Positions 1-10,062 of a DNA stretch of 10,062 bases are shown piece after piece. Origin of the DNA: a plasmid. The notes below the pieces were generated by a model. It saw only the letters and a list, made by a program, of their open reading frames with translations. It was not told the origin of the DNA and did not search any database. Numbering within the stretch: the stretch's first letter is position 1; every line of letters starts with the position of its first letter. The position numbers were made by a program, and so were the translations under genes. The stretch lies in sequence record NZ_CP087609.1. One strand, written 5' to 3'.

Positions 1-214
1 GATGTTTGAACCAGAGGCCTATGCGGGAAAAATGTGCACCGTGCGGATATCCATACAACGTGATGGCACTCTGAACAGCGCCATTGCTGAAGGAGGAGAT
101 CCGAAACTCTGTAAAGCAGCAATATCAGCCGTTACCCACGCCAAAATTCCGCCGGCACCGGATGAAAATACCTGGCAAATATTCAAAAACGCCCCTCTGG
201 ATTTCAGACCATGA
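1..214 (+). CDS. 3' portion of a TolA C-terminal (domain III)-like protein. It is partial at the window edge and is probably the continuation of the lipoprotein ORF at 9905-10062 across a circular junction.
   Basis: The frame-2 ORF ends ...YAGKMCTVRISIQRDGTLNSAIAEGGDPKLCKAAISAVTHAKIPPAPDENTWQIFKNAPLDFRP*. This aligns residue-for-residue with my recollection of the E. coli TolA C-terminus (SSYAGKTCTLRIKLAPDGMLLDIKPEGGDPALCQAALAAAKLAKIPKPP...VFKNAPLDFKP), including both cysteines. The stop TGA at 212-214 overlaps the ATG of the next gene (ATGA). Confidence 0.7.
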   Translation, partial: MFEPEAYAGKMCTVRISIQRDGTLNSAIAEGGDPKLCKAAISAVTHAKIPPAPDENTWQIFKNAPLDFRP

Positions 215-576
215 AAGCTTTTACTCTGACAGTGCTGGCGGCCATGTTCCTCACTCCGGTACATGCGATACCACTAAAACCCGTAACCACACTGCAGCCA
301 ACCTACCCGGTACAGGCCGCAGCAAAACGCATCGAAGGTCAGGTGACCGCCACGTTTGATATTCTGGACGATGGACGAGTGGACAACGTGTCGCTTACCG
401 GCTGTCACCTTTTTTTTCGGGAAACGCTGACGGCAATGAGGCACTGGCTATATCCCGCAGGGCACCCGGCAATGCGACAGGTTATAAATTTTGAATTCAG
501 TCTGAAAAATGACGGCTTACAGGATCCGCGACCAGTCACCACCCAAAAGCTCAATGATGATGGTTGCCGCCAGTAA
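211..576 (+). CDS. Exported stand-alone TonB C-terminal-domain protein (121 aa). It has a signal peptide and lacks a TonB-like N-terminal anchor and proline-rich spacer.
   Basis: The N-terminus MKAFTLTVLAAMFLTPVHA looks like a Sec signal peptide. The core YPVQAAAKRIEGQVTATFDILDDGRVDNVSLTGCHLFFRETLTAMRHWLYP matches the TonB CTD signature ([32 protein letters not shown]...FEREVKNAMRRWRYEP) as I recall it. It is translationally coupled to the upstream TolA-like ORF. Confidence 0.7.
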   Translation: MKAFTLTVLAAMFLTPVHAIPLKPVTTLQPTYPVQAAAKRIEGQVTATFDILDDGRVDNVSLTGCHLFFRETLTAMRHWLYPAGHPAMRQVINFEFSLKNDGLQDPRPVTTQKLNDDGCRQ

Positions 577-750: not shown

Positions 751-1029
751 ATGTCATCAGCAACATCCATCAGGCTCGATGAAGAACTTAAGGACCGGCT
801 GAAAACGCTGGCCGATGACCGGCACCGCTCAGCGCACGCGCTAATGCTGGAGGCAATCACCGAATACATCGACCGGGAAGAGAAGCGCAGCCAGTACCTG
901 CGGGACGGACAGGCCGCATGGCAGCACTATCAGGAAACGGGTCTGCACCTTACTGCGGAAGAAGCGGAAGCCTGGATAAGTACCTGGGGAACTGAGAACG
1001 AGCAGGATGCTCCGCCATGCCACAGGTAA
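751..1029 (+). CDS. Ribbon-helix-helix (CopG/ParD-like) antitoxin of a type II toxin-antitoxin pair (92 aa from the ATG at 751).
   Basis: MSSATSIRLDEELKDRLKTLADDRHRSAHALMLEAITEYI has the beta-strand/helix pattern of RHH antitoxins. A good RBS precedes the ATG at 751. The ORF-track start at 643 lacks an RBS, so I prefer 751. Its 3' end overlaps the toxin start, giving a stop/start overlap. Confidence 0.7.
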   Translation: MSSATSIRLDEELKDRLKTLADDRHRSAHALMLEAITEYIDREEKRSQYLRDGQAAWQHYQETGLHLTAEEAEAWISTWGTENEQDAPPCHR

Positions 1030-1331
1030 CGATTTCCGCGCTGGCACAGCGCGATTTACAACGCCTTCAGGACTTTCTCAAAACCAAAAATCGGCTGGCA
1101 GCCAGAAAAGGAGGTGAGGTGATCGTCCGGGCTATCCAGCAACTGAAAACATTGCCAGACATTGGCCGCCCGGTGCCGTTTCTGCCGCTGGAATATAAGG
1201 AACTGGTGATCGGGTTTGGCGACAGTGGCTATGTGATGCTCTACCGCCACGACCGGGAAATGGACCAGATTGTGATCGTCACCGTCAGGCATCAGAAAGA
1301 ATCCGGGTATCCGGGGGCAGACAGCCTCTAA
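1017..1331 (+). CDS. ParE/RelE-family toxin (104 aa).
   Basis: The size, position immediately after and overlapping a RHH antitoxin gene, and a sequence pattern (…KELVIGFGDSGYVMLYRHDREMDQIVIVTVRHQKE) typical of RelE/ParE-fold toxins support the call. The ATG at 1017 overlaps the antitoxin 3' end. Confidence 0.75.
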   Translation: MPQVTISALAQRDLQRLQDFLKTKNRLAARKGGEVIVRAIQQLKTLPDIGRPVPFLPLEYKELVIGFGDSGYVMLYRHDREMDQIVIVTVRHQKESGYPGADSL

Positions 1332-1494: not shown

Positions 1495-1923
1495 GTGGCG
1501 AAAACATTGCTCAACCTTTCACAGGCAGCACAAGCCGCGGGCATTACCAGAAGAACGCTATACAATCATGTAAAACAGGGAAAGGTTACCGTGTCACGTG
1601 ACGGGAAAAACAACCCTGTCGTGGATGTGTCAGAACTGATCCGTGTATACGGAAATGTGAATATCCCTGAGAAACAAATTCCCGGCATTTCACACCGTGA
1701 AAATACACAAAAAAATTTCCCACAGGAACAGCTTCTGGCAATGCAAAAGGAACTGGCCGATCTCCGGCAGGCTGTCACCCTGATGCTGGAAGATAAAACA
1801 TCCCGGGAAGAAGAACGCCGCCAGCACGATGATGAGCGCCGGAAACTCCAGGCCGAAGTGGACAGATTGACAACAGAACTGACACAGAAGAAAAAACGCT
1901 TCTGGTCCGGCTGGTTTAGCTGA
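1495..1923 (+). CDS. HTH (excisionase/MerR-like, HTH_17-type) DNA-binding protein with a C-terminal charged coiled coil (142 aa, GTG start).
   Basis: The N-terminus LLNLSQAAQAAGITRRTLYNHVKQGKV is a classic HTH_17 motif. The C-terminal half is rich in E, R and K and in heptad-like repeats. An RBS AGGGGTA lies 6 nt upstream of the GTG at 1495. Confidence 0.55.
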   Translation: MAKTLLNLSQAAQAAGITRRTLYNHVKQGKVTVSRDGKNNPVVDVSELIRVYGNVNIPEKQIPGISHRENTQKNFPQEQLLAMQKELADLRQAVTLMLEDKTSREEERRQHDDERRKLQAEVDRLTTELTQKKKRFWSGWFS

Positions 1924-1948
1924 GAACTTACCGAAGGGAATGGAGAAC

Positions 1949-2128
1949 ATGACGAAGCAGGAAAAAACTGCCCTCAATATGGCTAAATTCATTAAGGATC
2001 AGTCGCTGCTGTTGCTGGAAAAGCTGAACGAGCTGGACATGGATACCCCGGCCGACATGTGCGAACGGCTTCACGAGGATGCGGAAACACTCTGGCAGGT
2101 GATGCGGGATAAGCTCGGGGAAGAATAA
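1949..2128 (+). CDS. rop: Rom/Rop RNA-one-modulator protein (59 aa from the second ATG).
   Basis: MTKQEKTALNMAKFIKDQSLLLLEKLNELD... closely matches my recollection of pMB1/ColE1 Rop (MTKQEKTALNMARFIRSQTLTLLEKLNELDADEQADICESLHDHADELY...). The ATG at 1949 gives the canonical N-terminus. The ORF-track start at 1940 would add MEN. Confidence 0.85.
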   Translation: MTKQEKTALNMAKFIKDQSLLLLEKLNELDMDTPADMCERLHEDAETLWQVMRDKLGEE

Positions 2129-2163
2129 CAGCACCGGCCATGCCGGTGCTGGCGTTATTTTTT
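2129..2163. terminator. Bidirectional rho-independent terminator between the convergent rop and mob operons.
   Basis: A 9-bp stem CAGCACCGG/CCGGTGCTG (2129-2137 and 2143-2151) with loop CCATG is followed on the plus strand by TTATTTTTT. On the minus strand the same hairpin follows the stop of the 176-aa ORF and is followed by a U-rich tract, UUAUUCUUCC. Confidence 0.6.
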
Positions 2164-2685
2164 GCCGAACGGCCACCACCGGCGGGCGGGTTTGTCCTCC
2201 GGCAGTTCAGGCACCGGCACGTTAAAATAGCGGCTGTTATATTCCCGCATCAGCTCCGCTTTCAGCTTCTCGTTCACCGCGCTTTCCCCGTGCCGCTCGC
2301 TGACCACCTCAATCATCGCGTTAATCTGCTCCGGTGAGCACTTCCCGGCATCAACCACCTGCACACCGTTCTCGATGGCGAACCGCTCCACCTTTCGATA
2401 GAGGTAATCACACAGCTTCATTCCTGTGGGTTTGTCCCGTTCCCATTGCGGATTTTCACCGGTGAAAAAGTACGTGGCTTTTTCGTCGCTGTTGAGCCGC
2501 TCGTCATACATCCCGATGGATTTCATCATCGCCAGATGCTGGGCCCGGTCGACAAAACAGAAAACATACGCCCCGGTCTGCCAGGCGAGCACCACCATGT
2601 CTTCCAGATGCTCGCTGGTTGGCATAATGCAGCGCTCGCCGTCTTTGTCTTCCACGTCCTCAATAAATACCATGTACAGCGCCAT
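2155..2685 (-). CDS. Hypothetical 176-aa protein, the last gene of the mobB-mobC operon. Its function is unknown.
   Basis: The ORF has GGAG 10 nt upstream of its ATG and starts 6 nt after the mobC stop. Its GC content and codon usage match the upstream mob genes. I recognise no family motif. Confidence 0.55.
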   Translation of the reverse strand: MALYMVFIEDVEDKDGERCIMPTSEHLEDMVVLAWQTGAYVFCFVDRAQHLAMMKSIGMYDERLNSDEKATYFFTGENPQWERDKPTGMKLCDYLYRKVERFAIENGVQVVDAGKCSPEQINAMIEVVSERHGESAVNEKLKAELMREYNSRYFNVPVPELPEDKPARRWWPFGKK

Positions 2686-2691
2686 AATCCC

Positions 2692-3423
2692 TCACTCCGT
2701 TGTCATAAATTTAAAGCACGCGAACAGCCTCTCCCGGTCCAGCTCCACCGTTTTGCGGGCCTCGCCGGTCTGTGGATTCACGATTTCATCCACCGCCAGA
2801 ATCGCCCGCTGTACCCGGACAAGCGTCGGCCGGTCAGGGCAGATGTACCAGATTTCATCGATGCCGTTCGCCCGGCGGTTGAACAGATACCCGGACACCA
2901 CTTCCTGATACCGCCTGCGGCTCTTGACGGTGCGCTCTACCTCAAATGCCACCGTTCTGCCGTCCAGCTCCGCCAGCGCGTCCGGCACTTTCATCCCTTT
3001 CAGGGCCATACGGTGCAGGTACCGCCAGCCGGTGGCCCCCCGGCCCTCCATGGAGAGGCGCAGGGACTGCACGGCCAGCCGGTGCGGCAGCTGCGCCGCC
3101 GACACCCTTGACGGCTGAAACGGAATAACGTCCGTCAGCGGCTCGTCCTCGTCGAACGAGAACGCCACCCCGTGCGGCGTCAGCCCCCACACGCTGACCT
3201 GACGGCCGTCAACCGGGTATTTCGCCCGGACCAGCAGCCCTTTCGCCACCAGACTGTCCAGGAAGCGGTAAACCGGCTGTACCGCCGCAATCCCCAGCCG
3301 TCGCGCAACCAGCTCCGCCGTGGAACACAGCTCTTCCCGCAGCCAGCGCAGGGTCAGCCGTGTTTTCTCCGCGTTCCGCGCCTGCCGCTTCGCGTGGCTG
3401 ACGTTGTACTGCTCCAGTGTCAT
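2692..3423 (-). CDS. mobC: MobC-like MOBC-family relaxase with an N-terminal winged-helix (243 aa).
   Basis: The 243-aa ORF has its ATG overlapping the stop of the upstream coupling-protein gene (TGATG). It carries a winged-HTH-like segment (ELVARRLGIAAVQPVYRFLDSLVAKGLLVR) and a D...E-x-K-like acidic/basic cluster (ELDGRTVAFEVERTVK). The gene order and the sizes 654 and 243 aa match my recollection of the CloDF13 mobB-mobC arrangement. The family assignment comes from memory, not from a search. Confidence 0.6.
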   Translation of the reverse strand: MTLEQYNVSHAKRQARNAEKTRLTLRWLREELCSTAELVARRLGIAAVQPVYRFLDSLVAKGLLVRAKYPVDGRQVSVWGLTPHGVAFSFDEDEPLTDVIPFQPSRVSAAQLPHRLAVQSLRLSMEGRGATGWRYLHRMALKGMKVPDALAELDGRTVAFEVERTVKSRRRYQEVVSGYLFNRRANGIDEIWYICPDRPTLVRVQRAILAVDEIVNPQTGEARKTVELDRERLFACFKFMTTE

Positions 3424-5387
3424 CAGTAAAGCCCCGCAAAATCATCATCCGCTTTTGGTCCGCCGCCGTCGGCCGGAGGCAGGTACTCCGCCAGCGGGTC
3501 CGTTTTCGCCAGCACCGGGAAGGTTTTCAGCGAAATTTCCCGGCGCTCAACCCGCAGCGGGCTGCTGAACGCCAGCCGCGCCACGCCCAGCCCGGTCATC
3601 ACCGCGAACCCGTCAGGCAGGTGTTGCAGGGTGTTCACGTCAAACAGCGGCCGCGCCTCCTTCTGGATGAAGCTGTCGCCGCTGATGTGCTCCACGTTCC
3701 CCGCCTCCCGGCTGGCCCGGCGGCGCTCCACGTCCACCCGGATCTCCCCGGTCTGGCCCGCCGCCCACTGCGCGGACTCCTGGCTGGCCGCGCGATAGAA
3801 CCAGCGGATCGGCGTGTTATCCAGTACCGTGGTTTTCACAAAATCAGCGGGCAGATCCTGCCCGCACTGACCGAAGTCGCCCAGCGACTGGTGCGCGAGC
3901 AGCAGGTTGCAGTCCCGGCTGCGCAGCGTCCCCAGCGCGTTCAGCACGTACTTCGACAGCAGATATTTAATCTCATCGAGCATGATGCTCGCGTGCGGCC
4001 ACCTCCGGAACTCATCCCGCGCAATGATGATTTGCGCGCAGCGGGCAAACAGCATCTTCTGCACCCGGATCACCGCCTCATCGTCCATCGAGCCGATGAC
4101 GTACAGGCAGCCGCCGCCGTTGATTATCCCCGCCACATCGATACCGCTGTCCGTCTGCAGGACGCTCAGGTCGGCCACGTTCTCCAGCTTGGTGATCAGC
4201 CCCTTCACGTCCTTTTTCAGGGCCTCCGGCAACGCGTACGCCGCCGCCAGCACCTGCTGAATGTTTGCCCCCTGCGGGAACTGCTCCGCAATCAGCTTCG
4301 CCGCTTTCTGCTCGCTGATGCGGTAGTGGTCCGCCACGTCGCCGGTCTCACTCAGGTTAAACCCGGCAACCAGCAGATTCTTCAGGGCGTACTGGTCGAG
4401 ATCGCGGAACAGATTCAGCTGCGCCGGTTTCCCCGGCCGCAGATCCAGCAGGGTGAAGTCCGGGCAGTGCGCCCGGAAGACGTGCGGCGCCCACGCGTCC
4501 CCTTTGGGGTCGAAGTACACCACAGCGTCCCCGAAATCGCGTACGCAGCGAATGAGCGCGTTGGTGGCCATCGCGCTCTTGCCGCTCCCGGGCAGGCCGA
4601 GGATCTGAATATTGGTCTTGCGCCAGGTATCACGAGGGACCAGCACCGGCTGGCCCTGCTCATCCTTACCCAGAAACACCGCCTGCTGTTTCCGGGCCTG
4701 CTCCGTGGAAAAATCGGCCAGCGCGTTAACCGGTACCGGCTCCCCGAAATGCAGGTGGCGGACGTCTGTCATTTCTCCGGTCCGCTGGCTGCTGCGCCGG
4801 CTCTCCTGATTCAGTTTCGCGTTCACCGCCTCGTCAGCGGCCGCAAAATGACCATCAAGCAGCAGGAACGCCAGCAGCCGCGCCAGAAGGACGCCGGCGA
4901 CAAGCCCTCCGGCACACCAGGCTATCCCGAACAGGTTAGCCGGCTGCAGCAGGTAATAATCTGCGTTCGCATAGAGGTCCGGGCGCAGGACGGTTTCTCC
5001 CCAGCTCTCGATAAACACGGCGACAACCAGCCCCCCCAGAAGGGCCAGACCGGCAGCGCCGGTCAGCCAGTACGCGTAGTTCCAGACATGTCGCCGTGCC
5101 CTGACCATCCGCCCGGGTGAATCCAGCGAGGCCAGCACCGAAAATGGCACAGTCCGGTTATTATCGCGCTTATAGCGATCGGCATACTCCCGCCGCGCCT
5201 TATGGCTCAGCCCCACAAAACGCATTCGGCCGGCCCAGAGTTCAGCCAGACCGAAAAACAGGCCGATAACCAGAAAAAAACCGGCCAGACTGTAATACTC
5301 CCGGTACAGCCAGCTGACCCACGGGTAAATCTGCCGGGCCAGCTCCGGGATATGCCACTGCCAGGCAAGCGAATCCGTATTAAACAT
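3423..5387 (-). CDS. mobB: Type IV coupling protein (VirD4/TraG/TraD-like, CloDF13 MobB-like), 654 aa with N-terminal transmembrane segments.
   Basis: The N-terminal 150 aa contain at least two long hydrophobic segments. A Walker A motif ILGLPGSGKS sits within a T4CP-like core (VLVPRDTWRKTNIQILGLPGSGKSAMATNALI...). A strong RBS AAGGAGAGAG precedes the ATG at 5387. Confidence 0.8.
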   Translation of the reverse strand: MFNTDSLAWQWHIPELARQIYPWVSWLYREYYSLAGFFLVIGLFFGLAELWAGRMRFVGLSHKARREYADRYKRDNNRTVPFSVLASLDSPGRMVRARRHVWNYAYWLTGAAGLALLGGLVVAVFIESWGETVLRPDLYANADYYLLQPANLFGIAWCAGGLVAGVLLARLLAFLLLDGHFAAADEAVNAKLNQESRRSSQRTGEMTDVRHLHFGEPVPVNALADFSTEQARKQQAVFLGKDEQGQPVLVPRDTWRKTNIQILGLPGSGKSAMATNALIRCVRDFGDAVVYFDPKGDAWAPHVFRAHCPDFTLLDLRPGKPAQLNLFRDLDQYALKNLLVAGFNLSETGDVADHYRISEQKAAKLIAEQFPQGANIQQVLAAAYALPEALKKDVKGLITKLENVADLSVLQTDSGIDVAGIINGGGCLYVIGSMDDEAVIRVQKMLFARCAQIIIARDEFRRWPHASIMLDEIKYLLSKYVLNALGTLRSRDCNLLLAHQSLGDFGQCGQDLPADFVKTTVLDNTPIRWFYRAASQESAQWAAGQTGEIRVDVERRRASREAGNVEHISGDSFIQKEARPLFDVNTLQHLPDGFAVMTGLGVARLAFSSPLRVERREISLKTFPVLAKTDPLAEYLPPADGGGPKADDDFAGLY

Positions 5388-6709: not shown

Positions 6710-6815
6710 ACAGATTTGGTTGCTGTGCTCTGCGAAAGCCAGTTACCCGGTTAAGCAGTTCCCCAACTGACTTAACCTTCGATCAAACCACCTCCCCAGG
6801 TGGTTTTTTCGTTTA
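6710..6815 (+). ncRNA. RNAI: RNA I antisense copy-number regulator.
   Basis: ACAGATTTGGTTGCTGTGCTCTGCGAAAGCCAGTTACC...CACCTCCCCAGGTGGTTTTTTCGTTT parallels pMB1 RNA I (ACAGTATTTGGTATCTGCGCTCTGCTGAAGCCAGTTACC...GGTGGTTTTTTTGTTT). It ends in a stem plus U-run terminator. The loop regions differ from pMB1. Confidence 0.8.
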
Positions 6816-6872: not shown

Positions 6873-7022
6873 CTACTGAACCGCGATCCCCGTCAGTTCA
6901 GAGGAGGACGATGGTGCCACCGTTCCGCCCTGAACATCCCGGATATAATTTGCCTGACATGCGGCCAGAAGAAAGCCAGCAACAATCAATATAAAAAGAA
7001 AAATAGTCTTTACCTTTTTCAT
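6873..7022 (-). CDS. Bacteriocin release (lysis) lipoprotein, 49-aa precursor. It is not in the supplied ORF track.
   Basis: My minus-strand translation is [49 protein letters not shown]. The lipobox LLAAC, the mature 28-aa peptide and the overall sequence match colicin and cloacin BRP/lysis proteins as I recall them. An RBS AGGGAAAG precedes the ATG. Confidence 0.85.
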
Positions 7023-7042
7023 ATACTTTCCCTGTATTTAAA

Positions 7043-7075
7043 GACTCCGGCATTCATCCCTGAACACCGGAAGTC
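7043..7075 (-). terminator. Imperfect hairpin between the immunity and lysis genes. It is a possible partial terminator or attenuator limiting lysis-gene expression.
   Basis: The minus-strand RNA reads GACUUCCGG-(16 nt)-CCGGAGUC followed by UUUAAAU. The stem has one bulge and the U-tract is weak. Confidence 0.25.
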
Positions 7076-7106
7076 AGTATTTCAAATCATCCTTGATAAT
7101 TTTTTG

Positions 7107-7364
7107 TTACCAGTTACCGTCCCGATAATCAAAAGCTATATAACAATTATCCACATCAGGTTTTATTTGATTTTTAAAAAATGGCTGTAGTAAAGGAACC
7201 CATTCTTTCTTCAAATCAAACTCACCATTATTAATATTATCCTTTAAAGGCATTCCCAAGCTTTCAATGACAGAACCATCGTCACCAAAGTCTTTAGAAT
7301 ACTCTTCCCCTTTAAACTCTTCAGTTTTCTTATCAAACCATGTCAAACGTAATTTAAGCCCCAT
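7107..7364 (-). CDS. Immunity protein of the colicin E3/cloacin DF13 (rRNase) type, 85 aa.
   Basis: [43 protein letters not shown]...WVPLLQPFF...FDYRDGNW closely parallels my recollection of ImmE3 ([43 protein letters not shown]...FDYRDGDW). An RBS GAGAGG lies 9 nt after the bacteriocin stop. The gene is AT-rich. Confidence 0.9.
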
Positions 7365-7373
7365 ATTTACCTC

Positions 7374-9059
7374 TCAAAGATATTTTTTAATGTTCCGTTT
7401 TGGATCTGGCCCTTTAACCTGCTTACCCGTTTTGGGATCAAATGCGCCTAGGTGTTCGCCATCACTGGCACGATACCCTTCAAGCTCACCGTGCTGGGAA
7501 TCCCATTCATAAATTTTACGTTTTTTATCGCCATACCATCGGGCCCGCTTACCACCACCACCTTGTTTAGGTGTTTTAGGATCACCTCGCTTTAACTCTC
7601 CAAGTCCCTTTATGTCTTCTGTTTTAGGTACTGGATGATAATCATGGCCGTAGTCTTTAGTCCCCTTGCGAGGCTTGTTCTTTTCCTCATTTAACTTATT
7701 TTCTGCATCCTTCGCTTTTTTCTCCTTTTGTTTCCGGCTCTCCATCGCCCCGGTAAGTGCAGCCTTATCTCTGGATAAGGATTCATTCATTGCGTTTAAA
7801 GATGCCTGAGCCGCTTTTAATTTCTCATTCTGATTCTGAATATCCTTATCAAGATAGCGAACCTGATCCTGCCACCCGGAGCCATATTCATGAGGCGGGT
7901 TATAAGTCACAAAATCATCTTTATTTGCCTCTGCCTCTTTTACCTTTTTATCGGCTTCCTGAACAGCAGCCCTTGCACCGGGGAGCGCCTTCTCTGTCGA
8001 TGCAATGCGGCTGTTTAAGGTCGCAATATTTTTATCTTCGGCATCCAGCTCAGCTTTCGCTTTATCATAGTCTCTTTTCAGCCCCTCTTCCGGATGAGCG
8101 GCGTCCCATGCCTGCTGGCGACGCTTTTCTTCCTCCTGACGCTGTTTTACCTGTGCCGGGGTAAGAACATCTGTCACCGACACATAAACCGGCTTCTGTC
8201 CGGTCTCTTTCGGGAAACGAATAACGGCCTCACGGGAGTTACCACCGGCTGTAAAACCAGCCGGACGTGAATCACCTTTTTCAGCAACAATGCCTTTTGG
8301 CGGGGCTTTCGCTGTCGGAACACCTTTCGGTACGCTCACCTGCAGAGACGGGAGACCCGGAATCGACACACTGAATACCCCCGGACGTTTTGTCGGTTTC
8401 GCATCCACCACAGGGACACTCATTGGCCGACCTGCGACAACCGCAATATGCTGCCGCTCATCCTTCACCACATCCACAACCCGTTGTCTGACACGAACCG
8501 TCGCCTGGTCCAGTGGTAAAGTACTTGCCGGAGTCTCCGTCACCGCATCGGCCGGTAATGACGTCATAATTTTTGACATCATTTTCGGATCATCTTTTGC
8601 AATCTCAGAAGGCAGCACACCGTAGATCGCAATCCCCCACAGACCAAACTTAAACGGCCCCTTCAGGGCAGCCAGCACATCAGCAACGGCGGCCGACAAC
8701 GCATCGCCGGAAACTGATAAAGCCAGTCCTTCAGCCCCCGGAGTAGCCAGGGCAGGCAGACCGAAGGCCATCGCAGTGGCCGAAGACTGTCCGCCACCAG
8801 AGCTACCGCTATGATTGCCGCTGTTACCACCATTACCACCGGGTTTACTCCCGCCGTTACCAAACTCCCCCGGATTATAGTTATGAATATCTCCATTCGG
8901 CGTATGCGTCGTACCCCAGCCCGGCCCGCTGTTTGGATCCGTACCACCACCTGATGAAGGGCCACCTTTACCAGACGTACCGTTCACATTCCCACTGGCC
9001 TGACCACCATTATGTCCCAGACCTGAATTACCCGGACCTCGACCGTCTCCACCACTCAT
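7374..9059 (-). CDS. Cloacin DF13-like bacteriocin, 561 aa. It has a glycine-rich N-terminal translocation domain, a central receptor-binding region and a C-terminal 16S-rRNase domain.
   Basis: The N-terminal roughly 100 aa are rich in G, S and N (MSGGDGRGPGNSGLGHNGGQASG...). The C-terminus ...DYGHDYHPVPKTEDIKGLGELKRGDPKTPKQGGGGKRARWYGDKKRKIYEWDSQHGELEGYRASDGEHLGAFDPKTGKQVKGPDPKRNIKKYL matches my recollection of the colicin E3 rRNase domain (...DYGHDYHPAPKTENIKGLGDLKPGIPKTPKQNGGGKRKRWTGDKGRKIYEWDSQHGELEGYRASDGQHLGSFDPKTGNQLKGPDPKRNIKKYL). The length equals that recalled for cloacin DF13. Confidence 0.9.
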   Translation of the reverse strand: MSGGDGRGPGNSGLGHNGGQASGNVNGTSGKGGPSSGGGTDPNSGPGWGTTHTPNGDIHNYNPGEFGNGGSKPGGNGGNSGNHSGSSGGGQSSATAMAFGLPALATPGAEGLALSVSGDALSAAVADVLAALKGPFKFGLWGIAIYGVLPSEIAKDDPKMMSKIMTSLPADAVTETPASTLPLDQATVRVRQRVVDVVKDERQHIAVVAGRPMSVPVVDAKPTKRPGVFSVSIPGLPSLQVSVPKGVPTAKAPPKGIVAEKGDSRPAGFTAGGNSREAVIRFPKETGQKPVYVSVTDVLTPAQVKQRQEEEKRRQQAWDAAHPEEGLKRDYDKAKAELDAEDKNIATLNSRIASTEKALPGARAAVQEADKKVKEAEANKDDFVTYNPPHEYGSGWQDQVRYLDKDIQNQNEKLKAAQASLNAMNESLSRDKAALTGAMESRKQKEKKAKDAENKLNEEKNKPRKGTKDYGHDYHPVPKTEDIKGLGELKRGDPKTPKQGGGGKRARWYGDKKRKIYEWDSQHGELEGYRASDGEHLGAFDPKTGKQVKGPDPKRNIKKYL

Positions 9060-9099: not shown

Positions 9100-9165
9100 C
9101 AACATACTGTACATATACACAGTATAATTATTACCTTACTCCTCCCGTTTTCAGGTGTCAATATA
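9100..9165 (-). promoter_or_regulatory. SOS-regulated bacteriocin promoter. A LexA box lies at 9107-9122 inside a 20-bp palindrome, with a candidate -35 TTGACA at 9157-9162 on the minus strand.
   Basis: TACTGTacatatacACAGTA (9105-9124) contains CTGT-N8-ACAG and is a perfect 20-bp palindrome. On the minus strand TTGACA lies upstream and an AT-rich TAATAATTATACT region could provide the -10. The exact -10 cannot be fixed by eye. Confidence 0.6.
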
Positions 9166-9385: not shown

Positions 9386-9631
9386 ATGACGCACCTGAAA
9401 CTGACTCCCGCTGAAGAAAAGCGCCTGGCGGACGCCTTTGTCGCTCAGGCACTGGCCATGGGCCTGAAAGGGAACAAAACGCTGCCAAAGGCGGTAAAAC
9501 AACAGGTGCGGGAAAGGGTGCTTCGTGCCATTCAGGACGAACGTGAAGCCAGGCGGGCGCAGGAAATGCGTCGGGAGAAATACGAGGCTACGGAAACCAC
9601 CTTCACCTGGCAGCCACAGCGCCGCCGGTAA
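9386..9631 (+). CDS. Hypothetical 81-aa basic, helical protein of unknown function.
   Basis: GGAGG lies 7 nt upstream of the ATG. The sequence is rich in A, K, R and E and predicted helical (…VLRAIQDEREARRAQEMRREKYE…). It ends 5 nt before the Xer-site core. I recognise no family. Confidence 0.5.
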   Translation: MTHLKLTPAEEKRLADAFVAQALAMGLKGNKTLPKAVKQQVRERVLRAIQDEREARRAQEMRREKYEATETTFTWQPQRRR

Positions 9632-9904: not shown

Positions 9905-10062
9905 ATGCGTTTAATACCCTTTATCCTGCTGGCATTGTGCAGCCCCTTACTCCTGACGGCCTGTAAGCATTCCACCACCCAGCCGCCGAAAATTTATACT
10001 CTGGATAAGTCATCTAAAATCAGTAGCTACGCTGCGGCCATCAAGACCGCTGTTGAAATGCA
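9905..10062 (+). CDS. N-terminal part of a lipoprotein (signal peptide plus lipobox LLTAC). The ORF runs off the window end and continues in-frame into the TolA-III-like ORF at positions 2-214 if the ends are joined.
   Basis: The translation is MRLIPFILLALCSPLLLTACKHSTTQPPKIYTLDKSSKISSYAAAIKTAVEM.. with an open frame to the last base. 'SSYAAAIKTAVE' aligns with TolA '…NNYAGQIKSAIES…', which lies just upstream of the TolA segment matched by the ORF at the window start. The upstream RBS is weak. Confidence 0.6.
   Translation, partial: MRLIPFILLALCSPLLLTACKHSTTQPPKIYTLDKSSKISSYAAAIKTAVEM

Follow-up and report, generated by a model that had tools for sequence, protein, structure and literature searches.

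Exported copies of TolA domain III and the TonB C-terminal domain on a Klebsiella cloacin plasmid: candidate decoys of envelope import

Why should a small bacteriocin plasmid encode the C-terminal domains of TolA and TonB, each exported and each separated from the remainder of an energy-transducing protein? The question is raised by two adjacent open reading frames, here called ORF-A and ORF-B, in a sequence of 10,062 nucleotides (NZ_CP087609.1; hereafter the window) that full-length alignment identifies as the whole of a circular, CloDF13-like cloacin plasmid of Klebsiella pneumoniae. An earlier interpretation made from the letters of the DNA, referred to here as the sequence-only reading, had proposed that ORF-A is an isolated TolA domain III (TolA-III) made as a lipoprotein, that ORF-B is a periplasmic TonB C-terminal domain (TonB-CTD), and that the two form a functional pair which either protects the host from bacteriocins and phages or, alternatively, aids the release of cloacin. 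Here, we describe a computational analysis of both genes, their relatives and their genomic settings. We present profile and structural evidence that confirms the identity of both domains, and we weigh the proposal that the two proteins are uncoupled decoys, carried as exclusion or defence cargo against Tol- and Ton-dependent bacteriocins and phages, to which we give an even chance of being correct.

ORF-A lies across the two ends of the window. Its 5' part (9905..10062, plus strand) comprises codons 1-52 and two bases of codon 53 and encodes the signal, the linker and the start of TolA-III at 10013, and its 3' part (1..214, plus strand) encodes the rest of TolA-III through Pro123, including Cys65, Cys90 and the C-terminal strand APLDFRP, before a TGA stop at 212..214. 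The two parts join in frame into an uninterrupted reading frame of 123 aa. Cointegrates, which open the circle at another point, carry the same 123-aa gene in one piece immediately before ORF-B, and thus the join across the window ends is real. The N-terminus reads MRLIPFILLALCSPLLLTAC, followed by KHS, and has a positively charged N-region, a hydrophobic core and a lipobox; as read from the sequence, the signal peptide spans aa 1-19, the lipobox LLTAC occupies 9950..9964 and the lipidation residue Cys20 is encoded at 9962..9964 (plus strand), with Lys rather than Asp at the +2 position. ORF-A therefore conforms to the outer membrane lipoprotein pattern, [LVI][ASTVI][GAS]C after a hydrophobic stretch with a non-Asp +2 residue. 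The +2 rule predicts from a Lys at this position Lol-dependent sorting to the outer membrane, and ORF-A is accordingly predicted to become a lipoprotein of the outer membrane's inner leaflet. About 16 residues separate the lipidation Cys from TolA-III.

The remainder of ORF-A is a TolA-III domain, as confirmed by profile matches and by a predicted fold. Residues 35-121 match the Pfam family PF06519, the TolA C-terminal domain (E 2.4e-24; 85.8 bits against a cut-off of 25), and in a search of Protein Data Bank (PDB) sequences residues 37-123 align without gaps to Escherichia coli TolA 335-421 (E 6e-24). An AlphaFold2 model was built from an alignment of nine family members, with a query, P0001, that is 99% identical to ORF-A. 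Over residues 31-123 its predicted local distance difference test score (pLDDT) exceeds 90, and Foldseek superimposes it on the E. coli TolA-III chain of the IF1 g3p complex (2x9a_B) with a target-normalised template modelling (TM) score of 0.96, a root-mean-square deviation of 0.6 Å and 48% identity; 3qdp, 3qdr and 1tol are the next matches. A fold search of viral structures in BFVD returned nothing below E 0.09. Cys65 and Cys90 align with the cysteines of E. coli TolA and are invariant in the nine-sequence family alignment. The similarity to TolA-III and TonB-CTD on which the sequence-only reading depended was thus found, at a level far beyond chance, and its description of ORF-A as an isolated TolA-III in a joined 123-aa frame, with an LLTAC lipoprotein signal and Lys at +2, is borne out by the PF06519 match, the fold on 2x9a_B, the in-frame join and the sequence itself.

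The edge of TolA-III that binds ligands is retained in part. The C-terminal strand, beta3, is the site of beta-augmentation for the TolB N-terminus, colicin N and phage g3p (PMC7391070), and E. coli TolA residues D418 and K420 lie within the site for TolB, colicin N (ColN) and g3p and are needed for TolB binding (PMC4339652). This strand reads LDFRP in ORF-A and LDFKP in E. coli TolA, and D418 and K420 correspond to Asp120 and Arg122 of ORF-A, the first of which does not vary in the nine aligned sequences of close relatives.

ORF-B (211..576, plus strand; stop codon at 574..576) encodes 121 aa and begins with an ATG that overlaps the TGA of ORF-A (ccATGAaa). Its N-terminus, MKAFTLTVLAAMFLTPVHA followed by IPLKP, is a Sec signal peptide (aa 1-19; 211..267) with a VHA cleavage motif immediately before Ile. 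A TonB-CTD follows (aa 29-97; approximately 295..501), and the product ends in a 22-residue C-terminal tail that has no match (508..573). ORF-B matches PF03544, TonB_C (E 8.9e-11; 42.5 bits against 24.6), NCBIfam TIGR01352, tonB_Cterm (32.9 bits against a cut-off of 27.1), and, in the PDB sequence search, the E. coli TonB-CTD structures 1xx3 and 1u07 at E ~1e-15. It keeps the positions aligned with E. coli TonB Q160, Y163, P164, F180, G186, F202, W213, Y215 and F230, residues that are implicated in recognition of the TonB box. A single-sequence AlphaFold2 model, for which there were no diverse homologues to align, reached a pLDDT of only 39. The assignment as TonB-CTD made in the sequence-only reading is thus confirmed at the level of profile and PDB-sequence matches. 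The cleavable Sec signal and the lack of a membrane anchor and of a proline-rich spacer, also claimed there, agree with the sequence and with partial NCBIfam matches, and the product is predicted to be soluble and periplasmic.

Neither gene encodes a full-length TolA or TonB. ORF-A matches only the C-terminal end of full-length TolA models, positions 275-362 of 362 in TIGR02794 and 299-386 of 387 in NF007065, and carries a lipoprotein signal in place of the N-terminal transmembrane anchor and the long helical domain II. Against the TonB equivalog models NF008081-84, ORF-B scores 55-59 bits where the cut-offs are 265-448, and only positions ~146-243, or 146-234 in a full-length model of 240 positions, are matched; it represents only about the last 90 residues of TonB, with no membrane anchor and no proline-rich spacer. 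Because the transmembrane helix and the spacer that would connect them to TolQR or ExbBD are missing, neither protein can transduce energy. Judged by these matches, ORF-A and ORF-B belong to the TolA_C and TonB_C domain families and not to the TolA and TonB protein families. ORF-A is nevertheless named 'cell envelope integrity protein TolA' by RefSeq/PGAP because TIGR02794 (tolA_full) passes its cut-off on ORF-A, at 72.9 against 59.45 bits. By the same comparison the names "TolA" and 'TonB family protein' are misleading, and the tolA symbol on ORF-A and hundreds of relatives is a systematic over-annotation.

ORF-A is one member of a large and conserved family. All close relatives, of 123-129 aa and 46-92% identity, possess a lipobox, and a profile search of 1.84 billion cluster representatives (50% identity) gave 210 matches at E values up to 1e-10. 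Among the 150 best representatives, 98 are of 165 aa or less, and most match the profile from its first residues. A strict lipobox is present in at least 54 of these 98 short representatives, and in more by eye, and several have a Sec signal instead; none of the 54 lipobox-bearing short representatives has Asp at +2. The family shares an invariant C-terminal segment, IPPAPD..W(Q)..F(K)...DF.P. Pairwise ratios of nonsynonymous to synonymous substitution (dN/dS) in the TolA-III domain are 0.15-0.26 in comparisons with unsaturated synonymous sites, and ORF-A is under purifying selection across genera. It matches PHROG 5772, which carries no functional annotation, over its full length. A scan of a genome collection with ORF-A returned only near-identical copies, apparent contaminants included. 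Copies of ORF-A or the plasmid that are identical or nearly so occur in assemblies labelled Arthrobacter mobilis, Syntrophomonadaceae metagenome-assembled genome, Streptomyces luteosporeus and Streptomyces axinellae (L021, L022, L023 and L024; L numbers denote the loci compared), and these are most likely contamination by the Klebsiella plasmid.

The relatives of ORF-A are found on several kinds of mobile element. They occur on small pore-former colicin plasmids of Enterobacter (L003, L016), on a Salmonella plasmid beside a microcin V export and immunity cluster (L006), and, together with a tRNase bacteriocin gene, on an IncFII plasmid (L045), so that with the window a bacteriocin gene is present in five of the contexts examined. 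Others lie on F-like conjugative plasmids near traI, traX or repA (L001, L011, L039), and one with a Sec signal lies beside psiA, in a leading-region position (L044). A 145-aa lipoprotein version is present in ~300 large Klebsiella plasmids. In lambdoid phage mEp460 a relative occupies the accessory (moron) slot between the Q antiterminator and the lysis genes (L026), and a further one is on a 42-kb phage contig (L042). The 6.4-kb Enterobacter hormaechei plasmid L003 carries both a pore-forming colicin (1930-3255) and a TolA-III lipoprotein (4406-4828), and this colicin has an N-terminal domain homologous to two parts of colicin A, its TolB box and its TolA-binding segment (3iax_B, 1.4e-15; 3qdr_B, 7e-6). 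This pairing raises the possibility that a decoy could target the toxin of its own plasmid.

Two further features of these neighbourhoods were observed. A DsbA/ScsC-like thioredoxin-fold gene often adjoins the TolA-III lipoprotein gene on F-like plasmids (L001 5187-5735; L011 6847-7635), and TolA-III has a conserved disulfide pair. In L002, an IncF Klebsiella plasmid, ORF-A follows exc1 and exc2, and in L003 an Exc1-like gene precedes that for the TolA-III lipoprotein, which thereby occupies the place that exc2 has in L002.

The distribution of ORF-B is narrower. Intact ORF-B was counted on at least 1000 contigs, its exact sequence occurs in 5192 index blocks, and it is found mostly on contigs of 10-20 kb. 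In all ten contexts read it lies within this same plasmid backbone, and in nine of them it directly follows ORF-A, the tenth (L035) having no called ORF-A gene. A colicin plasmid of Enterobacter bugandensis has the gene order tolA-like, copG, parE, as in the window, and lacks ORF-B; homology between the two plasmids ends at the end of ORF-A and resumes just before copG, and ORF-B is therefore part of an insertion or deletion of ~490 bp. The gene is also subject to decay. Inside it, two C residues and a run of eight T residues (408..417, plus strand) have lost one C in a 10,077-bp sub-lineage that is ~97% identical to the window. In an alignment with NZ_CP125092.1, where a 219-nt coding sequence is annotated, this loss cuts the ORF-B product to 72 aa and leaves ORF-A intact; three more substitutions lie 3' of the frameshift, and none are in ORF-A or in the upstream part of ORF-B. 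The 72-aa product is present on 332 contigs, and among the complete plasmids of PLSDB the frameshifted type makes up the majority of near-identical matches. A decayed copy of ORF-B is present in L002.

Exported proteins consisting only of a TonB-CTD recur on other plasmids and on temperate phages (L002 8323-8658; L046 3914-4312; L047 3911-4234; L048 3827-4267; L027 2884-3216; L028 2929-3255), and ORF-B itself matches PHROGs 36291 and 34172. Their hosts are the IncF Klebsiella plasmid L002, Pantoea megaplasmids, an Atlantibacter plasmid, a Klebsiella variicola plasmid, Klebsiella prophages, E. coli phage JLK-2012 and Stx1a phages. A lipobox is present in those of L002, Pantoea, Atlantibacter and phage JLK-2012, and a Sec signal in those of the K. 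variicola plasmid and Klebsiella prophage phi5.1. The K. variicola gene lies directly after orphan toxin and immunity modules of a contact-dependent inhibition (CDI)-like type, DUF637/DUF596.

How might two such proteins act? We infer their localisation, binding partners, expression level and protective phenotype, and propose the following sequence of events. ORF-A and ORF-B would be exported copies of only the outer-membrane-facing, partner-binding domains of two envelope energy transducers, and, having neither anchor nor spacer, would not receive the proton-motive force. Lipidated ORF-A would hold TolA-III on its ~16-residue tether at the inner leaflet of the outer membrane, just where the TolB N-terminus and the translocation domains of bacteriocins emerge, and could capture them without a pulling force. 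Its putative ligands are filamentous-phage g3p, the N-terminus of TolB, and the segments with which group A bacteriocins, such as cloacin DF13 and colicins A, N and E1, bind TolA. ORF-B, a soluble periplasmic TonB-CTD, would occupy exposed TonB boxes, both those of outer membrane transporters and those of group B bacteriocins. The bound epitopes would be held in a dead-end complex, and a cell with the plasmid is predicted to become partly tolerant of bacteriocins and phages that depend on Tol or Ton.

Several lines of evidence are consistent with this decoy function. Periplasmic TolA-III reportedly confers colicin tolerance (Levengood-Freyermuth et al. 1993), together with a leaky envelope, and TonB C-terminal fragments, of 86-126 residues, reportedly protect against phage phi80 (Koedding et al. 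2004). The exported periplasmic domain of TonB, or shorter fragments of it, inhibits the TonB system in a dominant-negative manner (bioRxiv 10.1101/2020.01.05.895219). Import of cloacin DF13 uses TolAQR (PMC4033612), and five of six characterised klebicins are TonB-dependent (PMC6817936). Conservation of the binding edge in both proteins, purifying selection on ORF-A, and repeated occurrence on colicin and microcin plasmids, on conjugative plasmids and at moron positions of prophages also bear on such a role. More tentatively, and with somewhat less confidence than doubt, we suggest that plasmids and temperate phages of Enterobacterales widely deploy exported, uncoupled copies of the C-terminal domains of TolA and TonB, as outer membrane lipoproteins or as soluble periplasmic proteins, in a general and hitherto overlooked class of 'import-motor decoys' whose carriers would broadly tolerate TonB-dependent and filamentous pilus phages as well as colicins, klebicins and microcins.

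A number of findings weigh against decoy function. ORF-B is a lineage-specific, dispensable addition, whereas ORF-A is the core, widely conserved element, and a TonB-CTD gene is absent from the fetched flanks of all eight other ORF-A-family loci. The proposal of a functional pair therefore stands only in part: the two genes are adjacent, with an ATGA overlap, but the absence of the second gene at those eight loci, the indel and the frameshift indicate that they are not a conserved module. Expression is a further difficulty. A promoter and terminator scan detected no sigma-70-like plus-strand promoter around ORF-A and ORF-B at its threshold, and the Shine-Dalgarno sequence before ORF-A is weak; titration by a stoichiometric decoy would require an adequate copy number. 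The beta2 edge of TolA-III, which is the colicin A site, has diverged in ORF-A (TLNSAIAEGGD, compared with MLLDIKPEGGD in E. coli), and ORF-A therefore need not bind every TolA ligand. Sequestration of the TolB N-terminus or of TonB boxes would be expected to carry a cost in envelope leakiness and iron starvation. One family member lies in a chromosome without evident mobile context (L043), and PADLOC contains no matching defence family for these proteins. As regards regulation, a box scan found no LexA or Fur box near ORF-A in the window. In the Salmonella relative L006 (5903-5945), a 17/19 Fur box overlaps a predicted promoter, TTATCA-17-TAAAAT, that faces the TolA-III lipoprotein gene, which suggests that this relative may be expressed under iron control.

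The two genes might instead be non-functional fragments of tolA and tonB that were captured and now hitch-hike on a successful plasmid. The confinement of ORF-B to one plasmid backbone, its frameshift in a sub-lineage and its decay in L002, and the weak expression signals would all fit such debris, and for ORF-B it is conceivable. It is excluded for ORF-A by selection, which has acted across genera and is accompanied by a conserved lipobox and disulfide pair, and intact ORF-B is identical across thousands of contigs. Both proteins, moreover, are only ~40-50% identical to enterobacterial TolA and TonB, which argues that they are old, independently maintained paralogues with acquired signal peptides; a recent capture of host tolA or tonB was rejected on the same figure. 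For the two genes together we judge debris to be very unlikely. A role in auxiliary self-immunity, in which the main effect of the TolA-III lipoprotein is to keep sister cells from taking the plasmid's own TolA-dependent bacteriocin back up, as a supplement to the immunity protein and not as a defence against foreign agents, draws on the TolAQR dependence of cloacin DF13 (PMC4033612), on the pairing in L003 of a TolA-III lipoprotein with a colicin that has a colicin A-like translocation domain, and on the bacteriocin genes in five contexts (the window, L003, L016, L006 and L045). It does not account for ORF-B, which is irrelevant to a Tol-dependent toxin, nor for the relatives in L001, L011, L026, L039 and L042, whose fetched regions contain no bacteriocin gene, and the Salmonella relative adjoins microcin V, which is TonB- and Cir-dependent and not Tol-dependent. 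The gene is also missing from CloDF13 and most cloacin plasmids (PMC10269471, PMC6807383), and we consider self-immunity unlikely as its function.

Partial disablement of Tol-Pal or Ton could itself be the purpose, loosening the outer membrane or promoting vesiculation and so aiding cloacin release or plasmid spread. Tol mutants and overproducers of TolA-III leak periplasmic proteins. Changed TolB-Pal and TolB-TolA interactions could, in addition, regulate vesicle production (PMC7391070). However, ORF-A and the cloacin operon point away from each other across ~850 bp, the sole strong LexA box of the window (18/20) lies at 9105, before the cloacin gene, with none at ORF-A, the pair is absent from CloDF13, whose lysis protein releases cloacin, and relatives occur on elements that have no bacteriocin gene; envelope modulation thus appears highly improbable. 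An SOS-coupled release helper was rejected on the lack of a LexA box, the location outside the cloacin operon and the absence from CloDF13, and the alternative offered in the sequence-only reading, an aid to cloacin release, is disfavoured on the same observations. A contribution to conjugation or mobilisation, through entry or surface exclusion or by shielding pilus-bearing hosts from filamentous pilus phages that use TolA-III as a co-receptor, is suggested by the location of relatives on F-like plasmids, close to the tra end or to the repA region (L001, L011, L039), by the one beside psiA in the leading region (L044), by the position of ORF-A after exc1 and exc2 in L002 and of the L003 gene at the exc2 place, and by the binding of g3p-N1 to the conserved beta3 edge (PMC7391070). 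Searches with NCBIfam models revealed no similarity in sequence to TraT, TraS or Exc2, and the Exc2 model matches another, neighbouring gene in L002. Tol-Pal is, to our knowledge, not required in recipients for conjugation, which speaks against such a role, and protection from filamentous phages is a special case of the decoy model itself. A separate conjugative function is, in our estimation, quite unlikely.

The remainder of the plasmid provides the setting for these genes. Along its entire length (100%) the window aligns, with identities reaching 99.6%, to circular K. pneumoniae plasmids of 10.0-10.1 kb that are of ColRNAI type, MOBC and mobilizable; the alignment falls into two pieces because the circle is permuted. 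Its cloacin DF13-like operon (6873..9059, minus strand) consists of the cloacin gene (7374..9059), the immunity gene (7107..7364) and the lysis protein gene (6873..7022), and substantiates the claim that this is a bacteriocin plasmid; it is not co-transcribed with ORF-A or ORF-B and serves here as context only. The LexA box upstream of the cloacin gene occupies 9105..9124. Directly downstream of ORF-A and ORF-B are genes for a CopG ribbon-helix-helix (RHH) antitoxin and a ParE toxin (751..1331, plus strand). RNAI is at 6711..6812, and mobB-like, mobC-like and rop genes are also present. The backbone further contains two conserved hypothetical genes, for products of 81 aa and 176 aa (9386-9631 and 2155-2685, minus strand), that no NCBIfam model matches. 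A further reading frame, 1495..1923, resembles by eye the 'entry exclusion protein 1'-like genes of L002 (818-1746) and L003 (3542-4000), and has a below-threshold NCBIfam match to a plasmid replication DNA-binding protein. Published surveys place tolA and copG only in the ParE2 subgroup of CloDF13-like plasmids (PMC6807383) and record "TolA" and "TolB [sic] family" genes in one cloacin plasmid type and not in CloDF13 (PMC10269471); the original CloDF13 and most cloacin plasmids lack these genes (PMC10269471, PMC6807383).

If the decoy interpretation is correct, it would describe a defence carried by mobile elements that mimics the host's import motors rather than modifying receptors or sensing nucleic acids, and, with no PADLOC match, a type of defence outside current catalogues. 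It would also provide a function for a large family of exported proteins consisting of TolA-III or TonB-CTD only, which at present carry the wrong names, TolA or TonB, in thousands of genomes. Among clinical Klebsiella the 10-kb plasmid is very common, and decoys could explain part of the uneven bacteriocin and phage sensitivity of these strains and might affect therapy with klebicins and other bacteriocins or with phages. Uptake of siderophore-cephalosporins depends on TonB (PMC13436387), and decoys may conceivably matter for the entry of these and other siderophore-conjugated antibiotics. The idea is easily testable, as the genes are small and reagents and structures are on hand for every candidate ligand.

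A search of the full-text literature, to which subscription-only papers do not belong, found no functional study of these genes, only mentions at the level of annotation (PMC10269471, PMC6807383). The closest precedents are artificial, and the plasmid proteins resemble them in that the same domains are exported without a membrane anchor. Engineered TolA-III and TonB-CTD titrate their partners, giving colicin or phage tolerance and blocking TonB-dependent transport, as reported by Levengood-Freyermuth et al. (1993) for TolA and by Howard et al. (2001) and Koedding et al. (2004) for TonB. Mature ORF-B corresponds to approximately the last 90 residues of TonB and falls within the size range said to be active. 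These constructs are, however, over-expressed host proteins, whereas ORF-A and ORF-B are natural, diverged paralogues (~40-50% identity) on mobile elements, and engineered TolA-III is soluble, where ORF-A is a predicted outer membrane lipoprotein.

Natural parallels exist as well. Llp of phage T5 and Cor of phages phi80, N15 and HK022 are small outer membrane lipoproteins that block a TonB-dependent transporter from its periplasmic side and exclude phages and colicin M. They share with ORF-A their small size, their lipid anchor and their location on mobile elements, and import blockade, which in the case of ORF-A is predicted. There is no relationship in sequence or fold between them and ORF-A or ORF-B (no such match in PADLOC, Pfam or NCBIfam), and Llp and Cor target one receptor, FhuA, whereas a mimic of TolA-III or TonB-CTD would act on energy coupling, a step that is shared. 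Filamentous-phage g3p expressed within the host occupies TolA and renders cells colicin-tolerant. It blocks the same TolA-III interface (sites in PMC4339652 and PMC7391070), with cross-tolerance to group A colicins and filamentous phages. The direction of the interaction differs, in that g3p occupies host TolA and ORF-A would mimic TolA and occupy the incoming ligand or TolB. CjrB is a plasmid-borne, full-length TonB paralogue; it, TolA and TonB have C-terminal domains homologous to those of the plasmid proteins. What sets these three apart is their N-terminal transmembrane helix and their long spacer, helical or proline-rich, neither of which is present in ORF-A or ORF-B. Import blockade is thus a known means of exclusion, and what the cloacin plasmid may add to it, a suggestion that we regard as evenly poised, is exclusion achieved through mimicry of the import motors' own domains.

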